Shown here in pieces: positions 3,147-64,000 of a stretch of 64,000 nucleotides of DNA (positions within the stretch are counted from its first letter, which is position 1; each line of letters begins with the position of its first letter). The notes beneath the pieces are model-generated. The model was not told where the DNA came from and made no database searches. It saw nothing but the letters and a program-made list of their open reading frames with translations. The stretch comes from an uncultured Candidatus Saccharibacteria bacterium. Its GTDB lineage: Bacteria; Patescibacteriota; Doudnabacteria; UBA920. A program made the translations under genes and the position numbers. The DNA lies in contig CAYQEU010000001.1 in the NCBI GenBank assembly GCA_964416765.1, positions 617,208 to 681,207 of the forward strand. Direction: 5' to 3'.

Positions 3147-4130
3147 ATGGCCCGCGAAGATGAATTGCTAATCAAGGCGATTGCCGAAAAAAACAGTCTT
3201 GGCGAGATAGCGTCGCTGAAACAGTTTAGTAATGGACGGGGAAATTTGGTTTACGAGCTGAACGGAAACTTTGTGGTCAAAATCCGTGGCAAGAAATATC
3301 CCGAACTTAACATGTTTGGGTCACAGCCTGAACTGCTACAGATCATGAAAGCCGCCGGCATGAAAGTCCCCGACCTCTATGAACATGCTACCCTGGATGA
3401 CCACGAATACATGCTGCTAAGAAAGATACCCGGCCACGACCTGTCGGTGGACTGGTGGGCGCTTGAAGAAACGACCAAGGAACGATTAATTGCCGAGATA
3501 GCAGAACAGTTAAAAATTATGCATTCTCTCTGCAGCCCCGAATACCGCTTGCCCATAGTAAGCAGTCACGGCCAACAAAACCTAAGAGAGGCAACCAAAC
3601 AAGCTGTAGATTTTGACTCGATCGATGTTACGAAACTGCCCGCGCAGTATCAAGGCACGATCGAGTTTTTGAAACAATACTTCGAGGAGCACTCTAAGTA
3701 CCTGGACGAAACCGACACCGCCGTTTTCGTGCACAATGACCTGAACCTGGAAAATATTATTTGGAACGGCGAACGAATTGTAGGACTCATTGATTTTGAT
3801 TGGCTTTGCTACAGCGCCAAGGATTCGGAGCTCAAACGCATCGTCCATTATACCTATACCGCCAAGGACTGGGTGGATAAAAGTGTTGCCCGGGATGACA
3901 TCCCCTACCTGGCTAACCAGGGGGTCAAATGGCTGAAGAAGCACTACCCGGAATTGTTCGCGGCTGATTACCTCTCGGAACGGGTTCGCTGTTACTTAAT
4001 GCAAAAAATCCTGCGCCCGCCCAAGCGCTACCTCGATGGTCAATATGACGAACAGCGGCTGGAAGATTGGGCGCGCCAGGTTGATACGTATTACCGAACC
4101 AACTGGCTGGAAAACCTACTGGAAGACTAG
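3147..4130 (+). CDS. Phosphotransferase-family protein (aminoglycoside phosphotransferase / choline kinase-like fold)
   Basis: Catalytic-loop motif HNDLNLENIIW (HxDxxxxN) and metal-binding IDFDW, matching the APH/ChoK kinase fold. 327 aa. Confidence 0.7.
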   Translation: MAREDELLIKAIAEKNSLGEIASLKQFSNGRGNLVYELNGNFVVKIRGKKYPELNMFGSQPELLQIMKAAGMKVPDLYEHATLDDHEYMLLRKIPGHDLSVDWWALEETTKERLIAEIAEQLKIMHSLCSPEYRLPIVSSHGQQNLREATKQAVDFDSIDVTKLPAQYQGTIEFLKQYFEEHSKYLDETDTAVFVHNDLNLENIIWNGERIVGLIDFDWLCYSAKDSELKRIVHYTYTAKDWVDKSVARDDIPYLANQGVKWLKKHYPELFAADYLSERVRCYLMQKILRPPKRYLDGQYDEQRLEDWARQVDTYYRTNWLENLLED

Positions 4131-4155
4131 CGCTTACCCGCGCCGTTACTTGACA

Positions 4156-4803
4156 TTACTGGGCCGACCTCTCAAACGACTGCACAATCTGCTCCGCGAT
4201 ATTGGTGTCGGTTAAGTCATCAGTTTGGGCTGTGTATGTAAACACGAACATATTTCCGTCCACTTTTATAAAAGTATTGACGACCGTGGTCCCTACTTCG
4301 CCAGTCGCAGTCAAACGAACCGCGGATAACCCGTTTATAGTAGTGGTTTCTTCTGAGCCGTTAACAAAATGGTTTTGCAGGATAAACTGGCCATAACTTA
4401 TGCTGGGGTCGACTTTCCAAACAACTAAGTGCAGGTTAAATATATCCCCTGGTGTATTATTGGCGCTAAAACCGGCGGGTTTGTCGTAATTAGAAAATAT
4501 GACATCTCCGCCCATGAATGTTTGGTCCTGCTCCAGGCCCCGCTGGATAAAGTCAGATTCGCCTAAAGTTGTGTCGGTAAACCAATAAGCAGGATAGCGC
4601 ACGGCGTACCCGTATCGCTTGTTGGTGTACGTTCGCCAGCTGGCAGTAGAATCAACATTGGTCTGTGGGGACGCGGTTGCGGTAGTCCCAGCCACACTAT
4701 TATTTCCCGAGGATGACGGTTTGCCGGTCAGCGAATAGATAACAACAATCAACAAGATCCCCAGCGCGACAGCAGCAGTAATGAACAGTTTACTGACTCT
4801 CAT
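4156..4803 (-). CDS. Hypothetical membrane-anchored protein (N-terminal TM, extracytoplasmic domain)
   Basis: The track ORF 4156..4968 is trimmed to the internal start MRVSKLFITAAVALGILLIVVIY (ATG at 4803), which abuts the stop of the upstream gene at 4805. Single N-terminal TM helix. Confidence 0.5.
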   Translation of the reverse strand: MRVSKLFITAAVALGILLIVVIYSLTGKPSSSGNNSVAGTTATASPQTNVDSTASWRTYTNKRYGYAVRYPAYWFTDTTLGESDFIQRGLEQDQTFMGGDVIFSNYDKPAGFSANNTPGDIFNLHLVVWKVDPSISYGQFILQNHFVNGSEETTTINGLSAVRLTATGEVGTTVVNTFIKVDGNMFVFTYTAQTDDLTDTNIAEQIVQSFERSAQ

Positions 4804-4804
4804 G

Positions 4805-5107
4805 CTATTTGCCTCTCCGGGCGTTGCGCTTGCGGGTAGCGGCAGCCTTTTTGCCAGCTTCGACACGCTTGGCGTGGCTCTGGCTAGAGCCGCCTTTGCG
4901 GCCGCCTTTTCTAGCCGGCTCCTTATTTTCCGTCTTACCGCGCCCGGAACCAGACTTTTTTCCACCACCGCTCATTTTATTCACGGTTGCCCAGGCGCGC
5001 TTTTCCGCTTCCTTTTTTCCCACTCCGCGTTTTTCATAACCTTCTTCAATATGCTCGGCTTGGCGGTCCTGTTTTGACGTGTACTTTTCTTTGCTTCCTC
5101 GTGGCAT
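4805..5107 (-). CDS. Small basic ChaB-like / 'plasmid stabilization protein'-like protein with Lys/Gly-rich tail
   Basis: MPRGSKEKYTSKQDRQAEHIEEGYEKRGVGKKEAEKRAWATVNK resembles the ChaB-family core (xAQxIxxxxY....EExAxRxAWAxVxK). C-terminal K/G/R-rich low-complexity tail. Confidence 0.45.
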   Translation of the reverse strand: MPRGSKEKYTSKQDRQAEHIEEGYEKRGVGKKEAEKRAWATVNKMSGGGKKSGSGRGKTENKEPARKGGRKGGSSQSHAKRVEAGKKAAATRKRNARRGK

Positions 5108-5340
5108 AAAACTCCCTAAATTATTTGGTCTTATGTAAGTCCTATCGCCACGTCTGGGGAAATGTTACAACTATATTTTGCCTTAACGATTTTGAATATT
5201 GAGCCGTTATAAGATCCCGCTTCTCATAATTCTATCCTAACTAAGCCAGAATTATTATGTAACCAAACTTGGGAAAAACCGATTAAATAAGTAACAGGCC
5301 GGGTGCCTTTATAAGCGAAATAAAAATTAAACAAAGAACT

Positions 5341-5901
5341 ATGCAAGCAGAGACAACCACACTAGACAAGGCCAAACTTCGTGCAAGTTTTGGTTTTCTT
5401 TATCGCACTTACTCAAATAAGCTCTATAACTACTTTTTGTATCGTGTCGGTTACCGCGAAGCAGTAGCTGAGGACCTTGTTCAGGAAACTTTTATTCGGG
5501 CTTATGAAAAATTTTCCGACTACGAAGATCGCGGGTTTTCTTACCTAACCTACCTCATGAAAATTGCCCACAACCTCTTGGTAAACTATTACCGAGCCAA
5601 GCAACCGGTCCCATTAGAAACGGTAGCCCAGGAAATCCCAATTCAGGTATTCAACGAGGTAGAAAAGGAAATAGAAGCCGAAGAAGTCTGGAAAGCGGTA
5701 GACAATCTTTCCCCTAATGAAGCCGACGTAATGTACATGAAGTACCAGCGGGAAATGTCCGTGCACGAAATTAGCGAAGCGATCGACAAGTCAGAAAACG
5801 CGGTTAAGCTGCTCCTGTCCCGTGCCCGCAAGAAACTGGCGCGCAGTTCTTTTCTACGCGAACTGAAACAGTTCCACAACACAAAAAGTTTCGGGGTTTA
5901 A
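5341..5901 (+). CDS. ECF-type RNA polymerase sigma factor (sigma-70 regions 2 and 4)
   Basis: Region 2 (YNYFLYRVGYREAVAEDLVQETFIRAYEKF) and region 4 HTH (MSVHEISEAIDKSENAVKLLLSRARKKL). Confidence 0.85.
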   Translation: MQAETTTLDKAKLRASFGFLYRTYSNKLYNYFLYRVGYREAVAEDLVQETFIRAYEKFSDYEDRGFSYLTYLMKIAHNLLVNYYRAKQPVPLETVAQEIPIQVFNEVEKEIEAEEVWKAVDNLSPNEADVMYMKYQREMSVHEISEAIDKSENAVKLLLSRARKKLARSSFLRELKQFHNTKSFGV

Positions 5902-12588: not shown

Positions 12589-13188
12589 TTATTTGTTGGT
12601 GTTGGCAGGGGCATTATTAGCCGGTGCGTTGTTTGCCGGCGCCTGCTGGTTGGCGTTGGCAGGGGCATTAGCAGCATTTGGGTTAGCCTGGTACTGGCGG
12701 ATTGCTTTCATTACAGAGCCTTCTTCAGTAATTTCCTGGTAATAAAGTACCTGGTCGCGGTTAATCCGCATAACGTCAACTGGTCCATGCAATTCGCCGG
12801 ACTTGCCGAGTTTGCGCAAAGCGAGCTGTCCCTGCTGGTTGGCATTGGCAGCCTGCTGTTGTTGTCCCTGCAAATCGCTAGGTACTAACTGGAGGTAGTA
12901 GATGTCCTTCAAGGTCATATACTGGTCGTTCACATCAGAAAGCTTACCGAAGTAAACCTGTCCGTTGGTGAGGAAAACGGCATCATAGCCGGAAGCAGTC
13001 TGAGCCGAACTGTTATTGTTGTTGGCTGAGTTCTTCGGCATGATACGGTCGCGGAACATGACGGCGGCAATTAATACAGCCAGGATTACGATCAACAAAA
13101 TTGCCCACGGCAAAATTGAAGTTTTGCGAGGCGGCATTCCGTGTCCGTGATCGTCATGACCCATGGGATGATTCATTTCATCGGGCAT
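12589..13188 (-). CDS. Hypothetical membrane-anchored protein with Gln-rich and C-terminal (A)PAN(N) low-complexity repeats
   Basis: N-terminal His-rich segment HPMGHDDHGHGM, TM helix, C-terminal NAPANANQQAPANNAPANNAPAN repeats encoded by imperfect DNA tandem repeats at ~12597-12700. Confidence 0.55.
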   Translation of the reverse strand: MPDEMNHPMGHDDHGHGMPPRKTSILPWAILLIVILAVLIAAVMFRDRIMPKNSANNNNSSAQTASGYDAVFLTNGQVYFGKLSDVNDQYMTLKDIYYLQLVPSDLQGQQQQAANANQQGQLALRKLGKSGELHGPVDVMRINRDQVLYYQEITEEGSVMKAIRQYQANPNAANAPANANQQAPANNAPANNAPANTNK

Positions 13189-13302
13189 AAAACTAGAATC
13201 CTTTCTAATTTATTTTTATCTTAATGTTGTATATTTGTCTCAAAATGTTCGACTTGATGGACATATTATAGCATATTCCGCAAAACAAGGTACAATGATG
13301 TT

Positions 13303-13803
13303 ATGCCAAAGCCGCTATCACAATTTTCTTTGGTCATCCTTCGGGCGTTAAACAAACAAAAACGCCTGGCTTTTGATGAAATTAAGCGATTATACGACAA
13401 AACAGAGGATCCCAAACGAATATCAGCTACCCTCTACCGCTTGGAAAAACAGGAGCTAATGGTACGGAGTGGAAACATGGTCAATATCACCGAAGAAGGC
13501 GAAAGAGTTATCCACAATTATTTCCCAGAAAAGGATGGGATATGGAAACTCATAATTTTTGATATTCCCGAATCGGAACGATACGTACGCAATGTACTGC
13601 GTTCCAAGCTCCAGGCGCTTGGGTTCAAAAAGTGGCAGAACAGCATCTGGGCTTCCCCTTACGCGCTCGACCCCGAATTGGAAAAGGAGTTAAAGATCCT
13701 GGCCGCTAAGTACTTTGTGCGGTTAATCAAAACCACGGATATAAACGAAACTTCTGACCTGGAAGCTTTATTTTCTGACCAAATTGACAGCTCAGGCCGC
13801 TAG
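13303..13803 (+). CDS. PaaX-family-like transcriptional regulator (winged HTH plus PaaX C-terminal-like domain)
   Basis: C-terminal pattern GIWKLIIFDIPESERYVRNVLRSKLQALGFKKWQNSIWASPY fits the PaaX_C consensus (W..W.L..FD.P...R..LR..L...GF...Q.S.W..P). wHTH-like N-terminus. Confidence 0.55.
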   Translation: MPKPLSQFSLVILRALNKQKRLAFDEIKRLYDKTEDPKRISATLYRLEKQELMVRSGNMVNITEEGERVIHNYFPEKDGIWKLIIFDIPESERYVRNVLRSKLQALGFKKWQNSIWASPYALDPELEKELKILAAKYFVRLIKTTDINETSDLEALFSDQIDSSGR

Positions 13804-13837
13804 GCCTACAATGAACTTACCAATTAAATATTAATAC

Positions 13838-13935
13838 TTATTTAGGGAAGTCCGGTGTAATTCCGGCACTGTGCCGCAACTGTGACTGGCGCTGTTATAC
13901 AGCAAGCCAGAAGTCAGATCGCTAAATAAGCGTAA
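13838..13935 (+). promoter_or_regulatory. Candidate cobalamin (B12) riboswitch aptamer, short form
   Basis: AGGGAAGTCCGGTGTAATTCCGGCACTGTGCCGCAACTGTGA matches the B12-element core GGGAA..GGTG..AATCC....C.G..CCGC.ACTGT. Downstream ..AAGCCAGAAGTCAGATCGC is a divergent B12-box-like element (AAGCCAGGAGACCTGCC). Nested helices ctggc/gccag and gctgt/acagc. Confidence 0.45.
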
Positions 13936-13967
13936 TTCCCGAGCAGGATTTAAATCTTAATTTTTAA

Positions 13968-13992
13968 ACACCGCCCGGAGCGGTGATTTTTT
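13968..13992 (+). terminator. Intrinsic terminator / expression platform ending immediately before the ATG at 13993
   Basis: caccgc-ccgga-gcggtg hairpin followed by attttttat, then ATG. Confidence 0.6.
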
Positions 13993-15852
13993 ATGTCTGA
14001 AAGCGTAGATGATATCGAAATAGACGAAGAAGGCTTAGGCAGTGTTGAAGCTGTCGAGGAAGTCTTTGCGGAATTAGAGGCAGAATCGGAGCGCCACGCC
14101 CGTACAGTTGAGCAATATGAAGAGACTTCCCCGGAAACTGGAATGGACAGCAACTACGGCTCCTACGACCGGGAAACTGGTTCCATATATTTGGACGGCG
14201 TGGAACTGCAGGGCAGCGATGACAAGATTGAAGGGATCAAAGAAAAATTCAAAGAAGGATTCGAGGGTTTGGCAGACTGGTCGGAAGGAGAATGGAACGG
14301 TATTACCTATCGCACAGACTACCATATTGAAGGAAGCACACTTCGGTTGGACACCTATGTTATAGAAGTGAATGAACCCGGGGATTTGGATTCGGGCATT
14401 GAGTCCGACACCGGCAGCGAGGGCGGTGACGAAGACGAGCCAATAGCCGCTTCGAATATTTTGGACACAGAAAGGTCTATTGAAGAGGGCCAAGAGCTGG
14501 TTCACCAGGAGGAACAAGCGTTGGTCGAATCGGTACAAGAAGTGACAGCCTGGTCCAGCTGGTTGGAAGACCCGGGAGAAAGAATAGATGCGCGAACAGA
14601 AACCACAGAAGTTGCCCAAACCGAAAATCCACTAATAATAGAGCGTCCAATATTTGCCTTTGATAATCTGCTTAATGTGGAAGATGGAGGTACCGTTCCG
14701 GCAGAAAGAGTCGGTTCAGCCGACGAGAGTACGGCTGAGATAACAGACCAACCCGAACAGCAGCCCGCTGAGAGATCCGAAACAAATGAGGAAATTTCTG
14801 CCGAACTCAGCCTGCAGACTAACCATGAGAATGCTGAAAGCACCATTGAATCCACAACCGGAAGTACAGGCGCCGGCACTAAACCTGAAACATATAAGGA
14901 AATTCAGATTGAAGACTCTCATAGCTCGGTGGACGGGGCCCCGCAAGAGATGGATAACACTCGTTCCCCGATTAGCCTGAGACGCGAGAATGGCAGACAT
15001 GCTAAAGAACCAGCGCCCGCAGAAGCACGAGCAGTGGAAGCGCTGACGCAGGAAGTGCTGCCGGCAAAAAGTGCATTAGAGTTATCAAGAAAGCCCGACA
15101 CCAAAATTGTGGAGACGGAAAGCGCCCGGGCGGAAACTAAAAATTTAATATTTGAAACAGATTCCCCCATAGAGCAGGAAGACAATGCCGAGTTTGCCCG
15201 GACAGTCCAGCCCATTACTCTTACACGGAATATCAAACGGGGAGTAAAAGTTTCCCGGACCGAGGACATTCACACAACTGATTTTTCATTGGGGAATAAT
15301 CCTGAGCCGCAGGAAATAGCTGTTGAGCTAGCAGAAACTACAGAAACACCTGAAGAGGTTTCCGCTGAAACAGCAGTGATAGAAATTAATGAAATTACTG
15401 CAACTGAGGCGATAAGGATTGAACCAGCGCATCTAGAGAATCAGGAACCAACTATCCAAGAAGCCGCTGAATCGGTTCAAATAGAAGCGCGCACGGAGCA
15501 AATGGAAGCTAGGGAAACCATCCAAAAAACGACAAGCCAGGTTGAGAAAAAAATTACGGAAGTCCGTCGGGAAATCCGCCTGGTAAAAGCCGAAACCAAA
15601 AAAATAGAACAAGTAGCAAGAGAAAGAACCCAGGCCGAAAGAATTTACGAACCGATACGGGAAATCCGCCGGGTTATAATCAACGGTCCCCGCTTGGAAA
15701 CTGGTGGCATTATCCTGCGACGAAACCGGTCCGTCATTAGCACTGAAGAACGTGATCGCCTAGAAAATACTAATCGCATCGTGGAAATCCCCCGTTATAA
15801 TTCTCGCCGCCGGACGCCAACCCGGTCTGCCGCCATTAGACTAGCAGCTTAA
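13993..15852 (+). CDS. Hyper-acidic Glu/Thr/Ser-rich low-complexity (likely disordered) protein, 619 aa
   Basis: Longest ORF in a region full of antisense shadow ORFs. Strongly biased acidic composition. Basic C-terminus (RRNRSVISTEERDRLENTNRIVEIPRYNSRRRTPTRS). Stop lies 7 nt before the Clp-like gene. Confidence 0.55.
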   Translation: MSESVDDIEIDEEGLGSVEAVEEVFAELEAESERHARTVEQYEETSPETGMDSNYGSYDRETGSIYLDGVELQGSDDKIEGIKEKFKEGFEGLADWSEGEWNGITYRTDYHIEGSTLRLDTYVIEVNEPGDLDSGIESDTGSEGGDEDEPIAASNILDTERSIEEGQELVHQEEQALVESVQEVTAWSSWLEDPGERIDARTETTEVAQTENPLIIERPIFAFDNLLNVEDGGTVPAERVGSADESTAEITDQPEQQPAERSETNEEISAELSLQTNHENAESTIESTTGSTGAGTKPETYKEIQIEDSHSSVDGAPQEMDNTRSPISLRRENGRHAKEPAPAEARAVEALTQEVLPAKSALELSRKPDTKIVETESARAETKNLIFETDSPIEQEDNAEFARTVQPITLTRNIKRGVKVSRTEDIHTTDFSLGNNPEPQEIAVELAETTETPEEVSAETAVIEINEITATEAIRIEPAHLENQEPTIQEAAESVQIEARTEQMEARETIQKTTSQVEKKITEVRREIRLVKAETKKIEQVARERTQAERIYEPIREIRRVIINGPRLETGGIILRRNRSVISTEERDRLENTNRIVEIPRYNSRRRTPTRSAAIRLAA

Positions 15853-15858
15853 TAACAC

Positions 15859-17532
15859 ATGTCGACCGCTGAATTTAATAAAATTTCATATTTAGACTTG
15901 AAGTGGGAAGCCCGTAACCAACGGTTGCCCACCGTCATAGGCCGTCGGGAGGAAATAGCCCGCCTTAACCGCACTCTGCTGCGTACTACCACTAGCAGCT
16001 GTTTTGTGGTGGGAAAAACCGGGGTTGGGTCTACTACTTTCCTTCGTGGATGGGCCGGACAAGCCAACGACCTTCCGGTATTCAAAAATTATCGGATTGT
16101 GGAGCTTGGTTCGGAAAATTTTCATCATATTAACAGCGCGGGGACAGGATTTTCTTCCAAGTATGTTGAAGCTTTAGCCAGCATCCCCGCGCCTTCCATA
16201 ATAATAATGGATGGCTTTGGTTCTATCGTATACAACAAACCAGGACTGCTCCAAGCCATGACACGTTTACTGAGGCCGCTGGCTGAACACCCGCAAAATC
16301 GATTGGTTCTGGGAATGGAACCCCATGAGCATACATGGCTCTCAGATCAGGACCCAGGGTTTTGCCGGCTTTTTGAAACACTCTTTTTAAAAACCCAACC
16401 ATCGGAAGAATTGGAACAGATCCTAATCGAGGCGGGGTTGAAGCTCCAAAAGGAACGCAATGTTACCATCGCTCCTGATCTGCCGCGGCAAACTATTGCA
16501 TTGTGCCAGCGTTTTACCAGCCTGGGACAGCTGCCCGCGGCCGCGATACAGGTTCTGGATGAATCAATTGCCGAGAGCTTGGGGCAGGGCCACACTCAAG
16601 TTGGTTTGAAGGACGTCCAGCGGGTTGTCGCCGACAAAACGGGCGTTCCATTTTCCCAGCTGGCATCAAGTGAAACAGAACTACTGAAGAAATTGCTTCC
16701 CGAACTCCGCAAACAAATCGTGGGGCAGGACGAAGCACTGACTACAATTACCAATTTCATCCAGCGCGCCAAGCTAGGTCTTAAAAACCCGCACCGTCCT
16801 CTCGGTTCTTTCCTGGTACTGGGGCCCAGCGGCGTGGGCAAAACTGAAACTGCCAAAGCGCTTTCCAAGATCCTATATGGCAAGAATGAAAGTTTCCTGA
16901 GGATCGACATGTCGGAGTTTAACGAAGCCAACACTCTCCCACGGTTGCTCGGCGCCCCTCCCGGTTACGTGGGATATGAAGCAGGCGGCACCCTGACCAA
17001 CCATATTTCCGGCGAACCGCACAGCCTGATTTTGATGGACGAAATTGAAAAAGCCCACCCGAAAATTTTCGATGTATTCCTGCAAATTCTGGACGATGGA
17101 CGAGTTACATCAGGGCAAGGCCAGACGGTGGACATGACACAGACCGTGATAATCGCCACCTCCAACATTGCCGTAGATAAAATTATCGAACCGAAAAATC
17201 TCGATATTCAAAGCCCGGCGTTTTTGCGGGATGAAATACTTCCAGAACTTCAAAAACATTTTCGCACTGAATTTATCAACCGGTTTGACTCTATTGTTAT
17301 CTTTAACCCGCTTTCCACGGCTGACCTGCTCGATATCGCTATTTTGGAAATTGAGAAAATAGAAGAACGGGTGCGCGACCGGGAGCTAAGCTTTGACATT
17401 GACCGCAAAATTCTAGAAGAAAAGATCCAGGAGATTATTGATCCCCGCTTGGGAGCAAGGCCTATAAAAAGGTATGTCGAAAATACTTGTGAAACTTTAA
17501 TTGCAGAATCTCTGCTGGAGGAACAATCATGA
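15859..17532 (+). CDS. Clp/Hsp100-family two-domain AAA+ ATPase with degenerate D1 and no N or middle domain
   Basis: D2 is canonical: VGQDEAL, Walker A LGPSGVGKTE, Walker B LILMDEIEKAHPKIFDVFLQILDDGRVT. D1 P-loop reads VVGKTGVGSTT (Lys replaced) and Walker B IIIMDGF. 557 aa versus ~860 for ClpB. Confidence 0.8.
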   Translation: MSTAEFNKISYLDLKWEARNQRLPTVIGRREEIARLNRTLLRTTTSSCFVVGKTGVGSTTFLRGWAGQANDLPVFKNYRIVELGSENFHHINSAGTGFSSKYVEALASIPAPSIIIMDGFGSIVYNKPGLLQAMTRLLRPLAEHPQNRLVLGMEPHEHTWLSDQDPGFCRLFETLFLKTQPSEELEQILIEAGLKLQKERNVTIAPDLPRQTIALCQRFTSLGQLPAAAIQVLDESIAESLGQGHTQVGLKDVQRVVADKTGVPFSQLASSETELLKKLLPELRKQIVGQDEALTTITNFIQRAKLGLKNPHRPLGSFLVLGPSGVGKTETAKALSKILYGKNESFLRIDMSEFNEANTLPRLLGAPPGYVGYEAGGTLTNHISGEPHSLILMDEIEKAHPKIFDVFLQILDDGRVTSGQGQTVDMTQTVIIATSNIAVDKIIEPKNLDIQSPAFLRDEILPELQKHFRTEFINRFDSIVIFNPLSTADLLDIAILEIEKIEERVRDRELSFDIDRKILEEKIQEIIDPRLGARPIKRYVENTCETLIAESLLEEQS

Positions 17533-17831
17533 CAGAAAAATTGAAACCCATGGAAGCCGGTGCGGAAAGCAAAGCTATTGAGATAAAGCACAACGAAACA
17601 TCTCTGACTCCCCAAAACGCCCGGCAAATGTTTGAACAACGATTGGCCCAAACTGAGGCCATGCACCCCTTTGTGTCCCTTAAATTTTTCTATCAGGTAA
17701 AAGAAAAGATTATTCGTGAACAGGGCATGGCAAAAAAACTATTGAAGATTGAAGAAGAAAAACAGGAAAGATTGGACCAATTCAGTTTTGTGCTTAACCC
17801 CAGTTATTTTGAACAGAAACTAATATCCTAA
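17529..17831 (+). CDS. Hypothetical protein translationally coupled to the Clp-like gene (ATGA overlap)
   Basis: 100-aa ORF, 4-nt overlap with the upstream stop. Confidence 0.45.
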   Translation: MTEKLKPMEAGAESKAIEIKHNETSLTPQNARQMFEQRLAQTEAMHPFVSLKFFYQVKEKIIREQGMAKKLLKIEEEKQERLDQFSFVLNPSYFEQKLIS

Positions 17832-17832
17832 T

Positions 17833-19116
17833 ATGCCACAAGTTATCCTGGGCACAAATATATACCGGGGCAAGTCTACCCCCATCGCCTTCCAACAACA
17901 GGACCGGTTTCGGCACATGTACATGATTGGGAAAACGGGCGTGGGCAAATCCACGGTTTATGAAAACATGGCGCTGCAAGACATCCACAACGGCAACGGC
18001 GTTTGTTTTATTGACCCGCACGGTGAATCCATTGACTGGCTCCTGGACCGTATTCCGGCAAATCGCCTGGAAGATGTTATTTTGTTTGACCCGTCTGACC
18101 CCGCTTTCCCATTAGGCCTGAACTTGCTCGAAGCCCAAAACGAACAAGAACGCAATTTTTTGGTCAGCGAGCTGATCGAAATATTTTACAAACTATTCGA
18201 CCCCGACCGGACCGGTATTATCGGGCCACAGTTTGAACATTGGCTCCGCAACGCCGCGCTTACGGTAATGTCCGGGACGGAAGGCGGCAGTCTCATTGAA
18301 ATACCAAAGTTATTCGTTGATAAAAAGTACGAAGCGCAAAAACGAAAATCCCTGAAAGACCCCATTGTCCAGGAGTTTTGGAGCAAACAGATGAGCAACA
18401 CCGCTGAGTTTCATAAGTCAGAAATGCTGAACTATTTTTCTTCCAAATTTGGCTCGTTCCTCAACAATGGATTAATGCGTAACATCATTGGGCAAAGGCG
18501 TAGTTCTTTCTCATTTGAAAACGTTATTGCCCAGGAAAAGATTTTACTGGTTAACCTCTCAAAAGGGAAAATTGGCGAAATGAATGCCGCGATGCTTGGT
18601 TTGATTCTTATCGCAAAACTAGAGACCGCAGTTTTGAAACGCGCCGGAATTGCCCCGGACCGACGACACCCATTTTACCTCTACGTGGATGAGTTCCAGA
18701 ATATCACCACTTCTTCATTCGGCACCATGCTTTCTGAGGCTCGTAAATACGGACTGGGCATCCATCTGACCAACCAATATTTTTCCCAACTACAGGAGGA
18801 GATGCGAAATGCAATCCTCGGAAACGTGGGGACACTATTGGCTTTCGAAGTCAGCGCGGAAGACGCGGAAATCTTGGAAAAAGAGTTTGCCCCCTTTACC
18901 AGAGAGGACTTCTTTAACCTTCAAAAATATAACTTTTACATTCGCCTAATGATAGCCGGGAAGATGAGCACCGCTTTTTCCGGAGTTAGCCTGCCGCCTG
19001 CCGGGTATCCCAACCATGACATGGCCGAAAAAATAAAAACCCTTGGGCACCTGGCTTATGGTTACCCAAGGGTACTGGTCGAAGAACAAATCAAACAGGC
19101 GTTGTTTGCTACGTAA
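17833..19116 (+). CDS. Soluble TraG/TraD/VirD4-like (type IV coupling protein family) P-loop NTPase
   Basis: Walker A IGKTGVGKST, DPHGE, Walker B LYVDEFQN. TraG-D_C-like block RKYGLGIHLTNQYFSQLQEEMRNAILGNVGTLLAFEVSAEDAEILEKEF. No TM segment. Confidence 0.65.
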   Translation: MPQVILGTNIYRGKSTPIAFQQQDRFRHMYMIGKTGVGKSTVYENMALQDIHNGNGVCFIDPHGESIDWLLDRIPANRLEDVILFDPSDPAFPLGLNLLEAQNEQERNFLVSELIEIFYKLFDPDRTGIIGPQFEHWLRNAALTVMSGTEGGSLIEIPKLFVDKKYEAQKRKSLKDPIVQEFWSKQMSNTAEFHKSEMLNYFSSKFGSFLNNGLMRNIIGQRRSSFSFENVIAQEKILLVNLSKGKIGEMNAAMLGLILIAKLETAVLKRAGIAPDRRHPFYLYVDEFQNITTSSFGTMLSEARKYGLGIHLTNQYFSQLQEEMRNAILGNVGTLLAFEVSAEDAEILEKEFAPFTREDFFNLQKYNFYIRLMIAGKMSTAFSGVSLPPAGYPNHDMAEKIKTLGHLAYGYPRVLVEEQIKQALFAT

Positions 19117-20230
19117 GCTTTATCCCCAAAGTCCCCACATTGAATGTTGGGGCCTCAGGGGTAATTGAGTGCACATCCGCACTGCCAGCCACAATCAGCT
19201 TCCCGGCGGGTTCGCCATAGATACCGCTAGTGACGAATAGCTGCGTGGATGGGGATTGCGCCGGCACCAGCTCTTCTACGGGGATATGAGGCAACAAGGC
19301 AATCGCGTTTCGGGTTTGCTGCCAGACCGGGTTCTGTTCCAAACCCGCTCCCGCCGATACAAATACTTCGGGCGACAGATTGAACTCGGACGCAGCCAAC
19401 TTCATGTACTCATACCAGGTAAGCGGCGAGGCAAGCAATTCCGACCGGACGCCAGAATGCGGAGCAGAGATCTCGGAAGAAATAAACACGCACGAATCCA
19501 AGTTGCAATACACCAGAATGTCGTATTTCTCCACGATCTCCTTAGCTTCGTATAGCGAGCTGCCATGCCGCTGTAACGGACTGGTGGCCACCGGACGGCC
19601 GGAATCATCCAAGCGGTCGGTAATTATATAATTCAAGATTTGGGCTGGCTCCAGCACGCGAGCCAAATCACCTCCGCGGCCTTCAGCGAGATGGACTGCC
19701 ACTGTGACTATCTCTTCGTTAGTGGCGTGAAGTTCGCCCAATCCTTCCAGGATGGCGCGTTGTTGGTCCGGGGGCATAGAGGACCCCGCGTTTACAATGG
19801 AGTTGGCGGAACTATCGGTAATGGCAATCACCAAATCATCCTCGCTAAAAGGCCCGTACTTCAAAAGCTGGCGAGTGGCCTCCGCGTTATTCGCCGTGGG
19901 ATGATGGGTAACTGAATACACCCCTGCTTCAGGATTAAATTCCGCTTCCGGGTCCATGACCACTATTTTGATAGGCAGTCCGGGTAAAATACTTTTCAAA
20001 TAATCTATCGCGGCGGAAGTCCCAGCTCCTATACCGAGCAAGATAACCCTGTCATACTCATCCAAATCATAATAGGAACGGCCAAACTTAAACCGCTGTG
20101 TCGCCGAATTGTAGCTCACTTCCCGTTCCAGCATCACTCCCGGCTGGATAGATTTCAAGCCAGCTTCAGCAATGGCAATCACCTGCTCGACTTGCGGCTG
20201 AAATTTGTATGATTCTGAATTTTTTATCAT
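19109..20230 (-). CDS. Hypothetical protein with Rossmann-like G-rich loop (LLGIGAGTSAAIDYL)
   Basis: 373-aa ORF. 8-nt convergent overlap with the preceding gene. Family not recognised with confidence. Confidence 0.5.
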   Translation of the reverse strand: MIKNSESYKFQPQVEQVIAIAEAGLKSIQPGVMLEREVSYNSATQRFKFGRSYYDLDEYDRVILLGIGAGTSAAIDYLKSILPGLPIKIVVMDPEAEFNPEAGVYSVTHHPTANNAEATRQLLKYGPFSEDDLVIAITDSSANSIVNAGSSMPPDQQRAILEGLGELHATNEEIVTVAVHLAEGRGGDLARVLEPAQILNYIITDRLDDSGRPVATSPLQRHGSSLYEAKEIVEKYDILVYCNLDSCVFISSEISAPHSGVRSELLASPLTWYEYMKLAASEFNLSPEVFVSAGAGLEQNPVWQQTRNAIALLPHIPVEELVPAQSPSTQLFVTSGIYGEPAGKLIVAGSADVHSITPEAPTFNVGTLGIKLT

Positions 20231-20362: not shown

Positions 20363-20437
20363 TCGGGAGTAGCTCAGTGGTAGAGCTATCGGCTGTTAAC
20401 CGATCGGTCGTGGGTTCGAATCCCACCTCCCGAGCCA
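20363..20437 (+). tRNA. tRNA-Asn (anticodon GTT), CCA encoded
   Basis: Cloverleaf: acceptor tcgggag/ctcccga, D-arm gctc-agtggta-gagc, anticodon arm atcgg-ctGTTaa-ccgat, T-arm with GGTTCGAATCC, 3' GCCA. Confidence 0.9.
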
Positions 20438-35521: not shown

Positions 35522-36384
35522 TGCAGCTTTCTTTCCAGGCAATTGGCACCCAGTGGTTCATCGACATCCCTTCCCTGCCGGAAGGGATGTCTTCGGATTC
35601 GCTGCTAAAAAAAATCTTAGACCGCATTGAAGAGTTCGACAGGAACTATTCCCGTTTTCGTACTGACTCTCTGGTAACTCAAATGTCAAAACATGCGGGC
35701 ACCTACCAACTACCGGAAGACGGAAAAACACTTATGGATTCTTATGAGCAGTTCTACCAGGCCACTAACGGGGCGGTAACGCCGCTGATTGGCAACGTCA
35801 TGGAGCAAGCCGGGTATGACGCATCCTATTCCCTGGAACCGGGACAACTTAGCGCGCCGTTGTTTTGGGGTGAAGCCCTGCAATATAACTATCCAACTTT
35901 GGAAATAAAACAGGCCGTATTGTTAGATTTTGGAGCCGCGGGAAAAGGATATCTGGTAGATATAATATCGCGATTATTGGAATCAGAAATGATCACTCGC
36001 TACTGTGTAGATGCCAGTGGTGATATATTTTGTCGAGACTTGGAAATTAAAGTCGGTTTAGAAAACCCCACCGACCCCACCCAAGCGATTGGTATAGTAA
36101 AGCTGAACAACCGAAGCTTATGTGCTTCCAGCGGGAACCGCAGAAAATGGGCCGAATATAACCACATTATTGACCCGACCACCTTAAAGTCGCCGGACAA
36201 TATTTTGGGGACTTGGGCTATCGCGAATACTGGAATTATGGCCGACGGCTTGGCCACTTGCCTATATTTTTCCCCCGCGGAAAGGTTAAAATCGCAATTT
36301 GAGTTTGAATACCTTATACTATATAAAGGGCACCGGGTGGAAAAATCGCCTGGTTTTCCCGCCGAATTATTTTTTGCGCAATGA
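35521..36384 (+). CDS. apbE: ApbE-family FAD:protein FMN transferase
   Basis: QAIGTQWFIDIP...LLDFGAAGKGYLVD...GIMADGLAT, the ApbE fold. GTG start overlapping the upstream stop by 1 nt. Confidence 0.85.
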   Translation: MQLSFQAIGTQWFIDIPSLPEGMSSDSLLKKILDRIEEFDRNYSRFRTDSLVTQMSKHAGTYQLPEDGKTLMDSYEQFYQATNGAVTPLIGNVMEQAGYDASYSLEPGQLSAPLFWGEALQYNYPTLEIKQAVLLDFGAAGKGYLVDIISRLLESEMITRYCVDASGDIFCRDLEIKVGLENPTDPTQAIGIVKLNNRSLCASSGNRRKWAEYNHIIDPTTLKSPDNILGTWAIANTGIMADGLATCLYFSPAERLKSQFEFEYLILYKGHRVEKSPGFPAELFFAQ

Positions 36385-37892
36385 AGTACATAGATACTTT
36401 CCTCAACTCCATTACCATGTACCGGTTGGTCATGTGGGGTCTGGCCCTCGTTAACCTGTTGGCCATATTTTTCGGGTTCATTCACGTCATAGATTACGGC
36501 GGCTGGCAGATGCTCATCTCGTGGACGGTGCTTATGGCGGCCTGCTGGATTAGCAACACAATATTCGCCCGGGTACTCGGGATCCCAGAAAATATTGAAT
36601 CTTCTTTCATTACCGCTTTTATTCTCTTTTTCATACTGCCGCCGCCAGCCACAGCGGTAGATGGCGCCCTTCTAGTCGCCGCAGCCATTGCGGCCATGCT
36701 AAGCAAATACTTCATCAACATTAAGGGAAAACACATTTTTAACCCGGCCGCCTTTGGCGCGGTAGTGATAAGCCTGTCAGGGATGGGGGCCGTAAGCTGG
36801 TGGGTCGGAACACCCAGCCTCCTCATTCCAATCGCGATACTTGGGCTGCTCATGGTCCGAAAAATTCGTTGGTCATGGTTATTTTTCTCCTTCATCATTG
36901 CGGGTACTGTTTCTGTTTTTGCCAACTACTTACTGCGGGGGGTTGATTTTTACGAAATCATAAGAAGCACATATTTCTCGGGGCCTATTATATTCTTCGG
37001 AGCAATTATGTTGACCGAACCCATGACCACCCCGCCTACCCGAAAGCTCCAAATCATTTATGGGGTCATCGTGGGCGTGCTATATGGAACGCCTTTTCAC
37101 TTTGGGCCAATATCCAACAATCCCCAACTCACTTTGGTCTTGGGTAATATCTACTCCTACCTGGTCAGCCCAAAAGAACGGTTAATCTTAAAATTGAAAG
37201 AAAAAATTCAGTTAGCACCTTTAATTTATGATTTTGTATTCAGTCCAAACTACGCGCTTAAATTTATTCCTGGCCAGTACTTGGAATGGACGGTTGACCC
37301 GGCGGGTGCGGACACGCGCGGAAACCGTCGTTACTTTAGCCTGGCTTCAGCGCCTTCGGATGAGGAAATTCGTATCGGTGTAAAAATCCCGGGAAAATCC
37401 AGCACCTTTAAACAGAAACTTCTGGGGATGAAGCCGGGGGACCAAATTCTGGGCGGCCGTTTGGCGGGAGACTTTAGCCTACCTCAACGCCAGCAGGACA
37501 TTCCAATAGTGGGAATTGCCGGTGGGATTGGCATTACCCCGTTCCGCAGTATCATTAAAAACGCCGTTAACCAGAATACCAAACTAAACTTAGTTTTATT
37601 TTATTCAGCAGCAGATCCCGGCGAATTCGTGTATAAGGACCTGTTGGAAGAAGCTAAACAGATTGGGGTAAAAACTATTTTTATGGTTTCCGGCAAGGAA
37701 GCACCTTCGGGTTGGACGGGCAAAGTCGGCTATATTACACCCGAACTAATCAAACAGGAAGTCCCAGGGTGGGATAAACGGCATTATTATCTTTCCGGCC
37801 CTAACGCCATGGTGGACAACTATAAGCGATTACTTTCCGAATTAAGTATTTCAAAAATTCAAATTCACTCGGACTATTTTCCGGGATACTAA
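36381..37892 (+). CDS. Membrane oxidoreductase: NqrB/RnfD-like polytopic N-domain fused to FNR-like FAD/NAD(P)-binding C-domain
   Basis: GKHIFNPAAFG (NqrB/RnfD FNPA motif) in the membrane domain. C-terminal RRYFSLAS (RxYS FAD motif) and GIAGGIGITPF NAD(P)-binding motif. ATGA overlap with apbE. Confidence 0.7.
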   Translation: MKYIDTFLNSITMYRLVMWGLALVNLLAIFFGFIHVIDYGGWQMLISWTVLMAACWISNTIFARVLGIPENIESSFITAFILFFILPPPATAVDGALLVAAAIAAMLSKYFINIKGKHIFNPAAFGAVVISLSGMGAVSWWVGTPSLLIPIAILGLLMVRKIRWSWLFFSFIIAGTVSVFANYLLRGVDFYEIIRSTYFSGPIIFFGAIMLTEPMTTPPTRKLQIIYGVIVGVLYGTPFHFGPISNNPQLTLVLGNIYSYLVSPKERLILKLKEKIQLAPLIYDFVFSPNYALKFIPGQYLEWTVDPAGADTRGNRRYFSLASAPSDEEIRIGVKIPGKSSTFKQKLLGMKPGDQILGGRLAGDFSLPQRQQDIPIVGIAGGIGITPFRSIIKNAVNQNTKLNLVLFYSAADPGEFVYKDLLEEAKQIGVKTIFMVSGKEAPSGWTGKVGYITPELIKQEVPGWDKRHYYLSGPNAMVDNYKRLLSELSISKIQIHSDYFPGY

Positions 37893-39359: not shown

Positions 39360-42300
39360 TTATTGGTTGATTTGAATGTCGGCCGCTGGACCCAGGCCGA
39401 AGTCGGCTGGACTTTCCAGCGAAGTAATTACCGTCGGATCGGCATGGAATGTGCCAACCCCAACTACCCGGGCAAAGTACACGACGCGCATGGCGCTTGC
39501 CGCAGGACACTTCGGACTCACCGATGTCCCAATAGTAAACTTGATCTTACGTCCATCGACAATGTCAGGATAATTGAATAGCGGATTACATGGATCCTGG
39601 TTTCCTGGAATATACGTATTCTGGATGTCAAAGTAATACGTTGGAGTTATCGGCATCAGCCCAGCTGGGGTTACATCAGTAAGGGTAAATACTTTACTGA
39701 TCCCAACCGCGGTCTTGGGCTGGACTGAAATGGAAACTTTTACCAGATCGCCGTCCTTAAAGGTATTGGTGGTTTTACCATTAACCGAATACGTCCTTTG
39801 GATTGGAATGTTTAAGGTTGGTTTAGTTGAACTGTCAGCCGGTCCTTCATACCAGGTCAGCAACTGCAAGTCCCCGCTTACACCGCTGAATTCCAGTGAA
39901 GACAACTCGCTCGAAAGCAGTTCAAGGTTAAACCGGTTGCCGTTCTTTAATTCAACCGTACCGCTCCGCTGGTTGGTCTTGTAGCTGAATTTCCCGTTCT
40001 CGTGAGGGGCATAAGACAGCGCGGATTTGATAATGAAAGCTTCTTCCAGCGCCGCGGTGTCTTTTTTAGGCTCATGGGAATTGAGATATTCCACAATCTG
40101 GTCGCGGTCTGTGGGGTAGTTAAGCTGGGCCGCGAGCATGCCAGCCAAAGCGGTCAGCTTGCTCTGGCGGGTTTCATCTGGATCGGCAATATAGAGCTGG
40201 CCGTTATCGGCAGTCAATTTTGGCTTAACCTGTTCACTGTAAATTTTGCGCGCGCTTTCCTTGTCGCCGATTACGCCCAAAGCGTTAGCCACGAACATCT
40301 TGTCTTCCAAATCCAATGCCGGTTCGTCTTTAAAGAGCTGGAGTTTGTTAAGGACCGGTTCTTTGTAAGCCGCGAGTCCCAACAATGCTTGTGATATGCG
40401 GTGAGCATCCGCTTTCTGGTCTTTCAGTGATTTATTGAAGTAGAAAACCATGTCGGACTTTGGCAAGCTCTCCGGCACCAAAGCGGCGCCCAAAGCAGAG
40501 ACTTTCAGGTCACTGCTACTGTAAGGGAACAGGCTCATGCCCACCGGGTCAACCCGGTTATCGTCGGTTTTAACCTGGAATATGGAAGCGTCGAAATGAG
40601 GAGCATCACCCGGCATGCCAAATTGGTCATGCAAGACAGACTGCGCGTAAAAACTGGCCGCGCGTTGGTCAAACCTGGTTCCACCCTGCCACGCCAGCCA
40701 GCTGGCGGCACGGAACTGGGAACCTCGCCCTTTATCAGTGACTACAACCTGTGTTAAGCCATTAGCGTTTCCTGGAACGTTCTTGGTATCACCATTTAGG
40801 GTAGATGCGGAAGTCTTCGGGACTGATAAAGCCGAATCCAATACGGTCACGTTACGCTGTAAGTCATCGCTTAGGTTTCCCTGCTGGACTTTTACTTCCA
40901 CGGGATATACACCACTGGAAAGTTTACCTACCGGGACATAGGTAGTATTGCCTTTTATGTCCTGCTCATACTTCAGGTTAATCTGTGGAGCGGATACGGT
41001 AACATGGGCGGGCTTGTTTGGGTCATAGTCTCGCCCGAACACGCGCACGCGGAATTGGGGCTGGTCGCCCTTGTTGTAAGTCTGACCCAAGGTTACATCG
41101 GCAAACAGGGGCAAGCTGGTTGAGATATGGGATAGGGAGTCGCCCGCTTTGATGGCTTTCGGATCGAATGCCTCAGTTGTAATGCGCCAAGAAGTTAAGT
41201 TGTCCGGCAGCTTAAAGCTAAAGCTGGCCTGGCCTCCGCTCAAGTCAGCGCTGCGCGCCAACACGGTGTCCTGGAACTTCACGCGCGGGGTGCCCGCACC
41301 GCCGCCTCCACCACCGCCATCACCATTTCGCCCAGCATACTGGGTTAGTGATACGGCAGGGGTTTCGGTAACGTCTTTGTACAGGTCCACGAGAGTGTTC
41401 GCCGACGGTTCGTACCCGTTCGCGTCGAACACCGCCTGGTCGACCACGTACATATGCACAGTACCGGACGCCGATTTGTTGGAAGCGTCGGTCGCTTTAA
41501 CGGTTGCGTTAACGGTTTCGCCGGGGCGGTACTGGTCCTTATCGGTTTTCACTTCAACCTTCAGCTGCTGGGGCTTGATGTCCTGGGAAACAAACACGCT
41601 GTTTGTTTCTTCAAAACCAACTGGACCCAACACCACCGCCCGGTAGGCAATCCCCGGGCTCATTGGCTGGGAGAAAGTATCGCCGAAAGTCAGCGAGTCG
41701 GAGCTCGATGCTTTGAGGATGTCACGCTGGTACGCGTAGTACAAAATTTTCGTCGGTTTAGATTTGGTTGCGCGCTCCTGGTTGCCAAAAGTAACATTCA
41801 TTTGGAAGTTGTCGCCAACGTTAACCGGGCGCGGGTTGTCCCCTCCGGACAAGGTCAGGGTTGGCTGCAGGCCATATGGATCGGGGTTTCCGCCATTGTA
41901 GAAGCTGGTACCAGCTGAAGTGTAGTAACCCAGGGCGCGGGCAATCTTGCCATCGCCATCGGCCGCTTCCAGCAACAGGGAATAACTGACATTCTCCTCA
42001 ACGGGATATTTCTTGTCGAATTTCCACTGGCCGCCTTTATCGGTACTGCCTGAGAACGTTTCTATGATCTGGTCGGACTTGTCATAAGTGAAAACCGGAC
42101 GGGTGACCTTGTCTATATAATCATAGTATTCACCGGTCTGGCGCGGGGTATAAGTAGTTTTCTTTACGGATACGGTAACCTTTTGATTAACCGCGGGCGG
42201 TGCCTGCTGGTAAACCGGGTCACGGTAGCTATCCGTGTTTTGCTCAAATAAGTTAGTGCTTAATGCACGAGCCGTTACCGTGTAATGGTTGGTTCCTTCC

Positions 42301-45031: not shown

Positions 45032-45258
45032 GTACGGAGGTTAGCCACTAATCTGTTAGTTCTATTATATCACGCCATCTTTAAATGTAGCGCAAAATAA
45101 AGGCGATTTTCGTCTATGAGTACCACGACCACCCGAGCCAAAAAGTTTCATAAATCCTTCATATTTCACATATGATATATAATTTGACAAAACCGCCCGA
45201 AAGACATAAAATTCAGCTGAATTTAGCCCATGCTATATATCATATAAGTAATATCACT

Positions 45259-62631: not shown

Positions 62632-62638
62632 CCATAAA

Positions 62639-62977: not shown

Positions 62978-64000
<1,023 letters not shown>

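Follow-up and report, generated by a model that had tools for sequence, protein, structure and literature searches.

A conserved operon of Patescibacteria pairs two ATPases with an acidic protein behind a predicted cobalamin riboswitch

Type IV coupling proteins (T4CPs) recognize C-terminal, often basic, signals, and the substrates of T4CPs must be unfolded. Among the Clp/Hsp100 ATPases, the N domain binds VipB in ClpV and substrate in ClpB, and the M domain couples ClpB to DnaK; C-terminal LAA-COOH and basic MuA-like tails represent recognition classes of ClpX. In Patescibacteria (candidate phyla radiation, CPR), homologs of the VirD4-type T4CPs are found at about two per genome and were described as orphan, abundant, and unexplained (PMC12102498, 2025), with only 148 of 5,713 CPR homologs located near virB4; exaptation of these homologs to other functions was not excluded in that study, and Clp and riboswitches were not mentioned. 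Here, we analyzed a 64,000-nt stretch of DNA (the window; contig CAYQEU010000001.1 of assembly GCA_964416765.1, positions 617,208 to 681,207) from an uncultured Candidatus Saccharibacteria bacterium that is placed by GTDB among the Doudnabacteria. Positions 13784 to 19116 of the window were found to hold a leader followed by four genes, which together make up a widespread, previously undescribed, two-ATPase operon of Patescibacteria under the predicted control of a vitamin B12 (cobalamin) riboswitch. The operon encodes: (i) an acidic protein, the putative dedicated client or partner of the ATPases; (ii) a Clp-like ATPase; (iii) a small protein; and (iv) a VirD4-like ATPase. Each protein is of a known superfamily and the riboswitch is of a known class, while their combination as a system is undescribed; a literature search revealed no description of the operon nor of B12 control of such genes, and an apparent literature match (PMC10409787) proved irrelevant. 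We tentatively favor, with somewhat less than even confidence, a model drawn by analogy in which the unfoldase and the translocase of this B12-repressed module would act on the acidic protein as their client.

The four genes are co-directional and tightly packed (Table 1). Successive genes are separated by a 6-nt gap, a 4-nt overlap, and a 1-nt gap, respectively; a first-pass annotation, made from the letters of the window alone, had counted 7 nt for the first of these and was correct for the other two. The ATGA overlap between the Clp-like and small-protein genes suggests translational coupling. No anomaly was detected in the GC content of the region, and the operon is chromosomal and vertically inherited. 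At its 3′ end, the VirD4-like gene overlaps a convergent DUF4147/glycerate-kinase-like gene (19109-20230, - strand) by 8 nt (19109-19116), and a scan of the + strand from the VirD4-like stop codon to position 19400 revealed no terminator-like hairpin except a weak one at 19313.

Comparison with other genomes established with near certainty that the four-gene unit exists and is conserved. A scan of GTDB species representatives retrieved 221 relatives, of which the best 80 served as the basis for the locus counts given here. Homologs of both ATPases were found in Doudna-, Falkow-, Magasanik-, Kaiser-, Nomura-, and Wolfebacteria, as well as in Paceibacterota and Parcubacteria. Sixty-six loci encoded a VirD4-like protein of about 425 aa and included upstream DNA; in all 66 a Clp-like gene (about 545-563 aa) was positioned directly upstream, and in all 66 an acidic open reading frame (ORF) with a D+E fraction of 0.13-0.29 lay 3-30 nt upstream of the Clp-like gene. 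An ORF of 75-120 aa was detected between the two ATPase genes in 60 of these loci by ORF scan. Three distant homologous loci displayed the identical four-gene order within unrelated flanks. Beyond the four genes, no family recurred in more than 12 loci within 9 kb on either side of the 66 loci, and the larger clusters in this neighborhood survey proved to be antisense ORFs inside conserved genes. VirB4, mating pair formation (MPF), and relaxase genes were absent from the families recurring in these neighborhoods, a survey that included no profile search aimed at VirB4 or relaxase. The identities of the Clp-like and VirD4-like proteins to their window counterparts were found to co-vary (Spearman 0.59, n = 63 loci), with a median of 65% for the VirD4-like protein versus 46% for the Clp-like protein. 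The first-pass annotation had raised two possibilities that would speak against a dedicated system, namely that the homologs mostly occur apart and that the 619-aa acidic ORF is not conserved. The Clp-like and short VirD4-like genes were instead adjacent at every one of the 66 loci, in distant lineages and between unrelated flanks, and the acidic ORF has kept its position, its composition, its N-terminal domain, and its C-terminal ...AA tail.

This distribution bears on whether the operon may be an anti-phage defense system or the remnant of a mobile element or type IV secretion system (T4SS), which we regard as highly improbable. Weak PADLOC matches were obtained for the VirD4-like protein (mads_8, 1.4e-12) and the Clp-like D2 (PDC-M37B/DolB), and the PHROG families phrog_5156 and phrog_4871 were matched as well. 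However, the module is single-copy, its two ATPases co-diverge, and the VirD4-like proteins are 62-84% identical across Patescibacteria lineages, a level that resembles that of core genes, and the GC content is normal. Neither defense, relaxase, nor MPF genes are conserved in the neighborhood, and control by B12 is not known from defense systems. A phage origin was ruled out by a scan of IMG/VR, which returned no relatives, and by matches to cultured phages of only 20-26% identity.

The leader of the operon was examined by covariance models. The aptamer scored above the 50-bit gathering cutoff of RF01482, a member of the cobalamin clan CL00101 (RF01482/RF00174/RF01689), and begins 20 nt 5′ of the start given in the first-pass annotation. 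The description in that annotation of a cobalamin-riboswitch-like leader with an intrinsic terminator ending at the start codon was borne out by the Rfam score and by the position of the U-tract, which ends one base before the ATG. A Shine-Dalgarno-like GGAG (13977-13980) is contained within the loop and 3′ arm of the terminator-like hairpin. The promoter-like site was the best-scoring one within positions 13100-19400 and sits in the 3′ end of the upstream PaaX-like gene; the transcript start predicted from this site would fall at about the first base of the riboswitch. The PaaX_M/Cas2-like gene itself ends 14 nt before the riboswitch, and in 12 module loci, drawn from several sub-clades, a member of its family immediately precedes the riboswitch, which makes it a loosely associated fifth gene.

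Matches to the Rfam cobalamin clan at gathering score were found in the window and in 10 other loci (L001 to L004 and six of ten further loci), in each case just upstream of the acidic ORF. A custom covariance model (R1), built from ten such homologous leaders, gave 110.9 bits on the window leader. Over 1.3 Mb it matched 53 loci once each, and every match was on the coding strand and fell in the interval that separates the upstream gene from the acidic ORF. In these terms, of the 55 module loci with an available leader region, 53 carried the riboswitch, and the two remaining loci displayed weak matches (13 and 8 bits) at the expected place once the speed filters were turned off. The aptamer helices were also found to covary. 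Across 52 distinct homologous leaders, 91.8% of cells were paired, and 151 double-sided changes were counted, where shuffles gave 43±6 and slid partners no more than 39; changes on both sides were observed in 10 of the 15 aptamer base pairs. In 42 of 52 homologous loci, the aptamer is followed by a stable hairpin and a run of five or more T residues directly before the start codon; CGGGAG is a frequent loop sequence.

As a control for ligand class, metagenomes were scanned with a 30-nt core of the riboswitch, by which 87 contigs were matched. The core is not specific to CPR: of the 37 matches with sufficient downstream DNA, seven preceded the present module, and a possible eighth module locus (L121) was ended by the contig end. 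Other genes found behind the same core included an operon of CobG-like, CbiC, and precorrin-methylase genes, a gene for a TonB-receptor Plug protein, and a gene for a DUF4430 surface protein. On two of the metagenome contigs (L102 and L146) the core precedes secreted proteins of about 520-590 aa with prenyltransferase-like repeats and a DUF4430 (transcobalamin-like) domain, which are probably surface proteins for B12 capture. Because the same core precedes classical B12 genes elsewhere, and because the aptamer is conserved and covaries, the leader is predicted to be a true cobalamin sensor. Nearly all cobalamin riboswitches are OFF switches. Based on this general behavior of the class and on the terminator architecture, repression of the operon by bound B12 is considered likely.

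When compared with the classical cobalamin regulon (btuB/btuFCD, cob/cbi, metE, and nrdAB/nrdDG), the module was found to share the aptamer clan and a terminator-type platform, whereas transporters, corrin enzymes, and B12-independent isozymes are absent from its four products. To our knowledge, neither a ClpB-like ATPase, a T4CP-like ATPase, nor an acidic disordered protein has been reported in any B12 regulon.

The Clp-like protein carries two AAA+ modules, D1 and D2, which were examined in a family alignment of the window protein and 120 homologs (121 members). D2 is canonical, with Pfam matches to AAA_2 (1.9e-54) and ClpB_D2-small, the motifs GPSGVGKT and LILMDEIEKA, and a GYVG pore loop; it is about 50% identical to the D2 of ClpB and of ClpC, and its motifs were invariant across the alignment. 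D1 of the window protein reads GKTGVGST at Walker A and IIIMDGF at Walker B, as the first-pass annotation had it, and the alignment separates these two changes. The Walker B motif is D(D/N/G)FG and thus devoid of the catalytic Glu in 121 of 121 members, whereas Walker A is intact (GxxGxGKT) across the family and its Lys has been lost only in the clade of the window protein (77-94% identity). The D1 pore-loop (R/K)Y was conserved. The absence of N and M domains, proposed in the same annotation alongside the canonical D2, was confirmed by model alignments: the alignment to the ClpA model begins at model position 174, and the ClpB model is matched solely over its positions 526-834 (D2), with no counterpart to the M-domain region and with D1 contiguous with D2. 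The ClpP-docking IG(F/L) loop was also missing from D2 in the window, and only 3 of the 121 members had any hydrophobic-G-F/L tripeptide. D1 is therefore predicted to be unable to hydrolyze ATP, with D2 as the intact motor. Since the N domain, the M domain, and the ClpP loop are all lacking, D1 is without its Glu, and D2 is intact, its motifs indicate a ClpB/ClpV-like unfoldase that stands alone, is driven by D2, and has none of the usual targeting domains.

In relation to described unfoldases, the Clp-like protein shares with ClpB/Hsp104 and ClpV (TssH) the two AAA+ modules, the canonical D2, and the absence of the ClpP-docking tripeptide. It differs (i) from ClpB/Hsp104 in lacking the N and M domains and the D1 Glu, with a score of 382.7 versus an NCBIfam cutoff of 1232; (ii) from ClpV/TssH in lacking the N domain and any linked type VI secretion system genes, with a TIGR03345 score of 323 versus 885; and (iii) from ClpA/ClpC/ClpE in lacking the N-terminal adaptor-binding domain and the ClpP loop, with a ClpA score of 329 versus 993. 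A chelatase of the CobS/CobT or BchI/BchD type, in which an AAA+ protein is likewise joined by an acidic protein, was rejected as the AAA+ protein is Clp-type and no vWA or MoxR-like matches were found. We also weighed whether the Clp-like protein may act in general proteostasis, as a disaggregase or unfoldase of CPR with the other proteins as accessories and the riboswitch loosely coupling the operon to growth state. The resemblance of D2 to the chaperones and the wide occurrence of the family in CPR are in line with such a role, which is nonetheless very unlikely: a housekeeping chaperone would not be expected behind a switch that a specific ligand turns off (53 of 55 loci), nor in lasting operon linkage with a T4CP-like ATPase whose conservation exceeds its own, and the M domain needed for cooperation with DnaK is absent.

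The acidic protein is rich in Glu (17.6%) and Thr (9.2%), with an isoelectric point (pI) of 4.4. Its net charge is -86 over residues 1-500, while the last 119 residues (501-619) have a pI of 11.1, in agreement with the Glu/Thr-rich, low-complexity protein with a basic C terminus that had been annotated. A repeat array was ruled out by Tandem Repeats Finder, which detected no repeats. A homolog search of 5.8 billion proteins returned only the protein itself and one relative of 58% identity; by comparison, a Clp-like homolog of 94% identity exists, although these two relatives are not necessarily from one genome. By position, however, homologs were found in every complete locus, with lengths of 237-1134 aa (median 682). 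The acidic protein evolves very fast and is probably disordered. Alignment of the positional homologs revealed an N-terminal domain, a block of about 100 aa containing W, H, and Y that follows an acidic N-terminal stretch and is reduced in the clade of the window. The pattern of this block is ..EDW..Y.G..F.G...LH.EM..W..G..F.LPDY....YV..L....G.V.YEI, and an ILRALGIP-like motif follows it in many lineages. No Pfam match was obtained for the acidic N-terminal regions of any of 40 members, and a profile search of the PDB gave chance-level matches only. Because the short forms of the protein (237-335 aa) are reduced to the N-terminal domain, the ILRALGIP-like motif, and the tail, the acidic middle is best described as an expandable spacer.

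The extreme C terminus is the second conserved element of the acidic protein. Of 59 acidic homologs, 38 terminate in Ala-Ala; among the other ORFs of 150 aa or longer at these loci, the count is 11 of 930. The common form of this tail is G-I-T-L/M-R/K-R/I-A-A, and other members end in ...LAA, IAA, MAA, RAA, or QAA, which gives a general pattern of hydrophobic-(R/K/hydrophobic)-Ala-Ala-COOH. As with the ssrA/tmRNA degrons and the Pup-Mpa pair, a disordered protein with a conserved extreme C-terminal element is encoded beside a ring unfoldase; in contrast to ssrA/tmRNA degrons, the tail here is part of the coding sequence of a large acidic protein. No protease-docking loop is present in the partner ATPase, and for this reason the outcome for the acidic protein is probably unfolding or translocation rather than degradation. 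The sole transfer-messenger RNA (tmRNA) in the fetched loci (L040, 16280-16670, - strand) has a tag that ends in ...FVPALA, and the acidic protein of the same locus (3156-5558, + strand) ends in ...EVAFA rather than ...AA; this single case hints that the acidic tail may track the ssrA tag of its own lineage.

The conserved His, Trp, and Tyr of the N-terminal domain would also suit a function in corrinoid acquisition, in which the acidic protein would be exported or deployed and its N-terminal domain would serve to capture B12 or to draw it out of host material; in a variant, the unfoldase would strip B12 from imported B12-proteins. Uptake genes dominate the B12 regulons of non-producers, and as a rule the non-enzyme genes that riboswitches control in B12 auxotrophs serve uptake. 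The riboswitch core precedes the TonB receptor and the B12-binding DUF4430 surface protein elsewhere, and the acidic protein evolves at the fast pace that characterizes extracellular or host-facing proteins. However, none of the four proteins has a signal peptide, a transmembrane segment, or a known B12-binding motif or domain, no permease is among them, and no route is apparent by which captured B12 would return into the cell. We consider this function quite unlikely.

The VirD4-like protein was assigned by Pfam to TrwB_AAD_bind (PF10412; 40 bits, cutoff 20.5) and TraG-D_C (PF12696; 31.8 bits, cutoff 22). It is a very highly conserved ATPase of the hexamer type. Its Walker A (GKTGVGKS) and Walker B (LYVDEFQN) motifs are intact, and GKTGVGKS and DEFQN were invariant in the family. 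In the AlphaFold2 (AF2) model (predicted local distance difference test, pLDDT, 86), a beta-strand begins at residue 4 and the protein starts directly at the nucleotide-binding domain. These results uphold the first-pass annotation of a VirD4/TraG-type ATPase without transmembrane segments, as there is no N-terminal extension able to hold a membrane anchor. By Foldseek, the model was most similar to TrwB (E 5e-12; template modeling (TM) score 0.60-0.63) and Cag-beta (TMq 0.67), followed by HerA, DotL, and VirB4. A profile of the VirD4-like family gave no match at E ≤ 0.01 against PDB sequences, and the placement among these structures thus comes from fold comparison only. An identity as a HerA/FtsK translocase was rejected, since the DUF87 score of 19.9 bits is below the 23.2-bit cutoff and confined to the P-loop, and the HerA TMq (0.45-0.56) is below that of TrwB. 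Compared with the T4CPs (TrwB/VirD4/TraG, Cag-beta, and DotL), the protein shares the nucleotide-binding domain, the all-alpha insertion, and intact Walker motifs; it differs in having no N-terminal transmembrane anchor, in its identity of 13-15% to solved T4CPs, and in sharing its operon and a predicted B12 riboswitch with a Clp-type unfoldase, without linked VirB4, relaxase, or MPF genes.

Membrane-anchored paralogs of about 850 and 1000 aa are found elsewhere in these lineages, in riboswitch-free loci. A second VirD4-like clade (16 loci, 52-55% identity) consists of proteins of about 850 aa with an N-terminal hydrophobic helix and an extension of about 400 aa; these loci carried neither a Clp-like gene nor a riboswitch, with no match to the custom covariance model in any of the 16. 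In a paralogous cluster that is widespread in CPR (L066 and L069-L084; e.g., L080, 7786-15215), TraG/TrwB-like ATPases of about 850 and 1000 aa occur in tandem, and between them lie an ORF of about 170 aa and a gene for a protein with Sigma70_r4 and HARE-HTH domains; this cluster, too, is devoid of a riboswitch and of a Clp-like gene.

The fold of the VirD4-like protein raises the alternative that the operon is centered on DNA, as a module for deoxynucleoside triphosphate (dNTP) supply. In that case the T4CP/HerA-fold ring would translocate or process DNA (e.g., imported DNA) when the B12-dependent class II ribonucleotide reductase (RNR) lacks adenosylcobalamin (AdoCbl), and the acidic protein would mimic DNA or act as a regulator, to be removed by the Clp-like unfoldase, in parallel to the known repression of B12-independent RNR isozymes by B12 riboswitches. 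The DNA translocases HerA and TrwB are among the fold matches, a weak NCBIfam match to CedD, a DNA-translocating ATPase, was obtained, and the charge of the acidic body would be fitting for a mimic. Furthermore, a class II-like RNR (Ribonuc_red_lgN/lgC and TSCPD) and NrdR are encoded 3-6 kb upstream in locus L003, and B12-independent isozymes are classical riboswitch targets. This RNR linkage was nevertheless found in L003 only and does not recur among the 66 loci, the operon has no nuclease, SSB, ComEC, or DprA genes, and the conserved AA tail and N-terminal domain are left without a role; a DNA-centered function is accordingly judged unlikely.

The small protein belongs to a family for which 57 cluster representatives were collected, all of them stand-alone proteins of 73-111 aa. 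Its C-terminal motif, YSF-VL(D/N)PxYFEQKF, is conserved. The AF2 model (pLDDT 77) consists of a disordered segment (residues 1-27), two helices (28-48 and 51-86), and the C-terminal motif (91-98). No significant match was found by Foldseek, by a PDB profile search, or by a Pfam scan of 49 small proteins. ClpS has an alpha/beta fold and binds the N domain of ClpA; a ClpS-like adaptor was ruled out by the all-helical model, by the lack of Pfam and PDB matches, and by the absence of an N domain in the partner. A WXG100-type substrate of a type VII secretion system (T7SS) was likewise rejected, as the WXG motif is missing and the Foldseek match to EsxB was insignificant (E about 8, probability ≤ 0.2). 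The T7SS (EccA, EssC/EccC, and WXG100 proteins) offers an analogy only, in that an AAA+ protein, a helical hairpin of about 100 aa with a C-terminal motif, a P-loop translocase of the FtsK/HerA/VirD4 superfamily, and a large substrate occur together; the module translocase is single-domain and soluble, the AAA+ protein is Clp-type rather than CbxX-type, and the small protein has no WXG. The proposal of the first-pass annotation that the combination corresponds to no characterized chaperone, secretion, or defense system is in keeping with these comparisons, in which the defining features of ClpB, ClpA/C, ClpV, anchored T4CPs and the T4SS, the T7SS, and ClpS were lacking.

We return to the favored reading, in which the two ATPases act on the acidic protein. 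Bound B12 would stabilize the terminator and turn the operon off, and the four proteins would be made when B12 is scarce. The acidic protein, already put forward in the first-pass annotation as a possible substrate or partner, would be the dedicated client of the two ATPases, a role which fits because it ends in an ssrA-like tail and is encoded with an unfoldase that has no N domain. The pore of the Clp-like ring may grip the ssrA-like or MuA-like tail directly, with D2 threading the chain, and the small protein may use its C-terminal motif to bridge the two rings or to regulate them. The unfolded polyanionic chain would then be received or translocated by the T4CP-like ring, possibly in cooperation with the membrane-anchored TraG-like paralogs encoded elsewhere in the genomes. 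The output would be a response to B12 starvation, whether B12-sparing, scavenging, or host-directed. A further-reaching version, which we consider rather unlikely, holds that the operon is a minimal protein-translocation system induced by B12 starvation, with the unfoldase gripping the tail and feeding the chain through the T4CP-like ring to the surface or host by way of the TraG-like paralogs; by analogy, the polyanionic protein in this version resembles a protein counterpart of the relaxase-single-stranded DNA substrate.

Several points weigh against the assignment of the acidic protein as a threaded client. (i) The mechanistic steps are inferred from gene linkage and motif analogy, and the link to B12 physiology is the weakest of them. 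(ii) The AA tail is missing in about one third of the acidic homologs, although some of these absences may be start, stop, or frameshift artifacts in metagenome-assembled genomes, and not every homolog has a basic C-terminal region (over the last 100 residues, the net charge has a median of +1). (iii) A membrane component is not encoded in the operon, and a role in export thus needs further partners. (iv) ATPases of the T4CP and HerA folds usually act on DNA, which favors the DNA-centered alternative. (v) A T4CP homolog, not necessarily of the type encoded by this operon, was reported to be non-essential in Ca. Southlakia epibionticum, the sole CPR lineage with transposon sequencing data (PMC12102498).

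The Patescibacteria represent a large share of bacterial diversity, and their conserved genes are mostly of unknown function with few regulatory clues; for this operon there is a defined ligand, B12, by which it should be switched. One class of the orphan T4CP paralogs that were presented as a puzzle in PMC12102498 is placed in a genetic and regulatory setting. The cobalamin regulon would be extended beyond transporters, biosynthesis genes, and isozymes to AAA+ and coupling-protein machinery, and the unfoldase free of targeting domains and its co-encoded putative client with a built-in ssrA-like tail would add to the known dedicated client-unfoldase pairs. A host-directed or scavenging output, if borne out, would link vitamin dependence to the epibiotic lifestyle. 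Should the operon prove to be a minimal translocation system, the vitamin supply of the host would control a scavenging or host-directed effector in epibiotic ultra-small bacteria, and thousands of orphan T4CP genes of Patescibacteria would be explained.

Table 1. Positions of the operon elements and of other annotated features in the window
Feature	Position	Strand	Remarks
PaaX_M/Cas2-like putative regulator gene	13303-13803	+	166 aa; PF20803 at 7.7e-18
Promoter-like sigma-70 site, TTGACA-17-TACAAT	13784-13812	+	11/12 consensus matches; consensus match only
AdoCbl-type cobalamin riboswitch aptamer (predicted)	13818-13965	+	Rfam RF01482, 61.4 bits
Terminator-like hairpin, CACCGC-CCGGA-GCGGTG + A-T6	13969-13992 (stem-loop 13969-13985)	+	Abuts ATG at 13993
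Acidic protein gene	13993-15852	+	619 aa; without Pfam, NCBIfam, PADLOC, or PHROG match; new family
Acidic protein N-terminal domain, residues ~50-135	14140-14397 (approximate)	+	Alignment of positional homologs
Acidic protein C-terminal tail, ...SAAIRLAA-COOH	15826-15849	+	ssrA-like ...h-x-A-A end
Clp-like gene	15859-17532	+	557 aa; Clp/Hsp100-type double AAA+ protein; D1 degenerate, D2 canonical
Small protein gene	17529-17831	+	100 aa; helical; new family; possible adaptor
VirD4-like gene	17833-19116	+	427 aa; soluble TrwB/VirD4-fold (T4CP-like) P-loop ATPase
tRNA	20363-20434	+	
tRNA	53822-53908	-	
5S rRNA	62637-62752	-	Window end
23S rRNA, 3′ part	62962-64000	-	Cut by window end

Other features were recorded in the window and in related contigs. 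On the contig of a close relative (L001), a group I catalytic intron (RF00028, 72.8 bits) was detected at 17229-17534 (+ strand), about 6 kb downstream of the module. The window itself encodes a 503-aa protein with an RnfD/NQR2-like membrane domain and a NAD_binding_1 oxidoreductase domain (36381-37892, + strand), as well as a 1710-aa alpha-2-macroglobulin-like protein with Big_5, A2M_BRD, A2M, and MG domains (39360-44492, - strand), the latter in a bacterium with a very small genome. At 45172-46776 (+ strand), a full EPSP_synthase/MurA-type domain is preceded in the same protein by an N-terminal HTH_3 (Cro/C1-type) domain, an unusual fusion.

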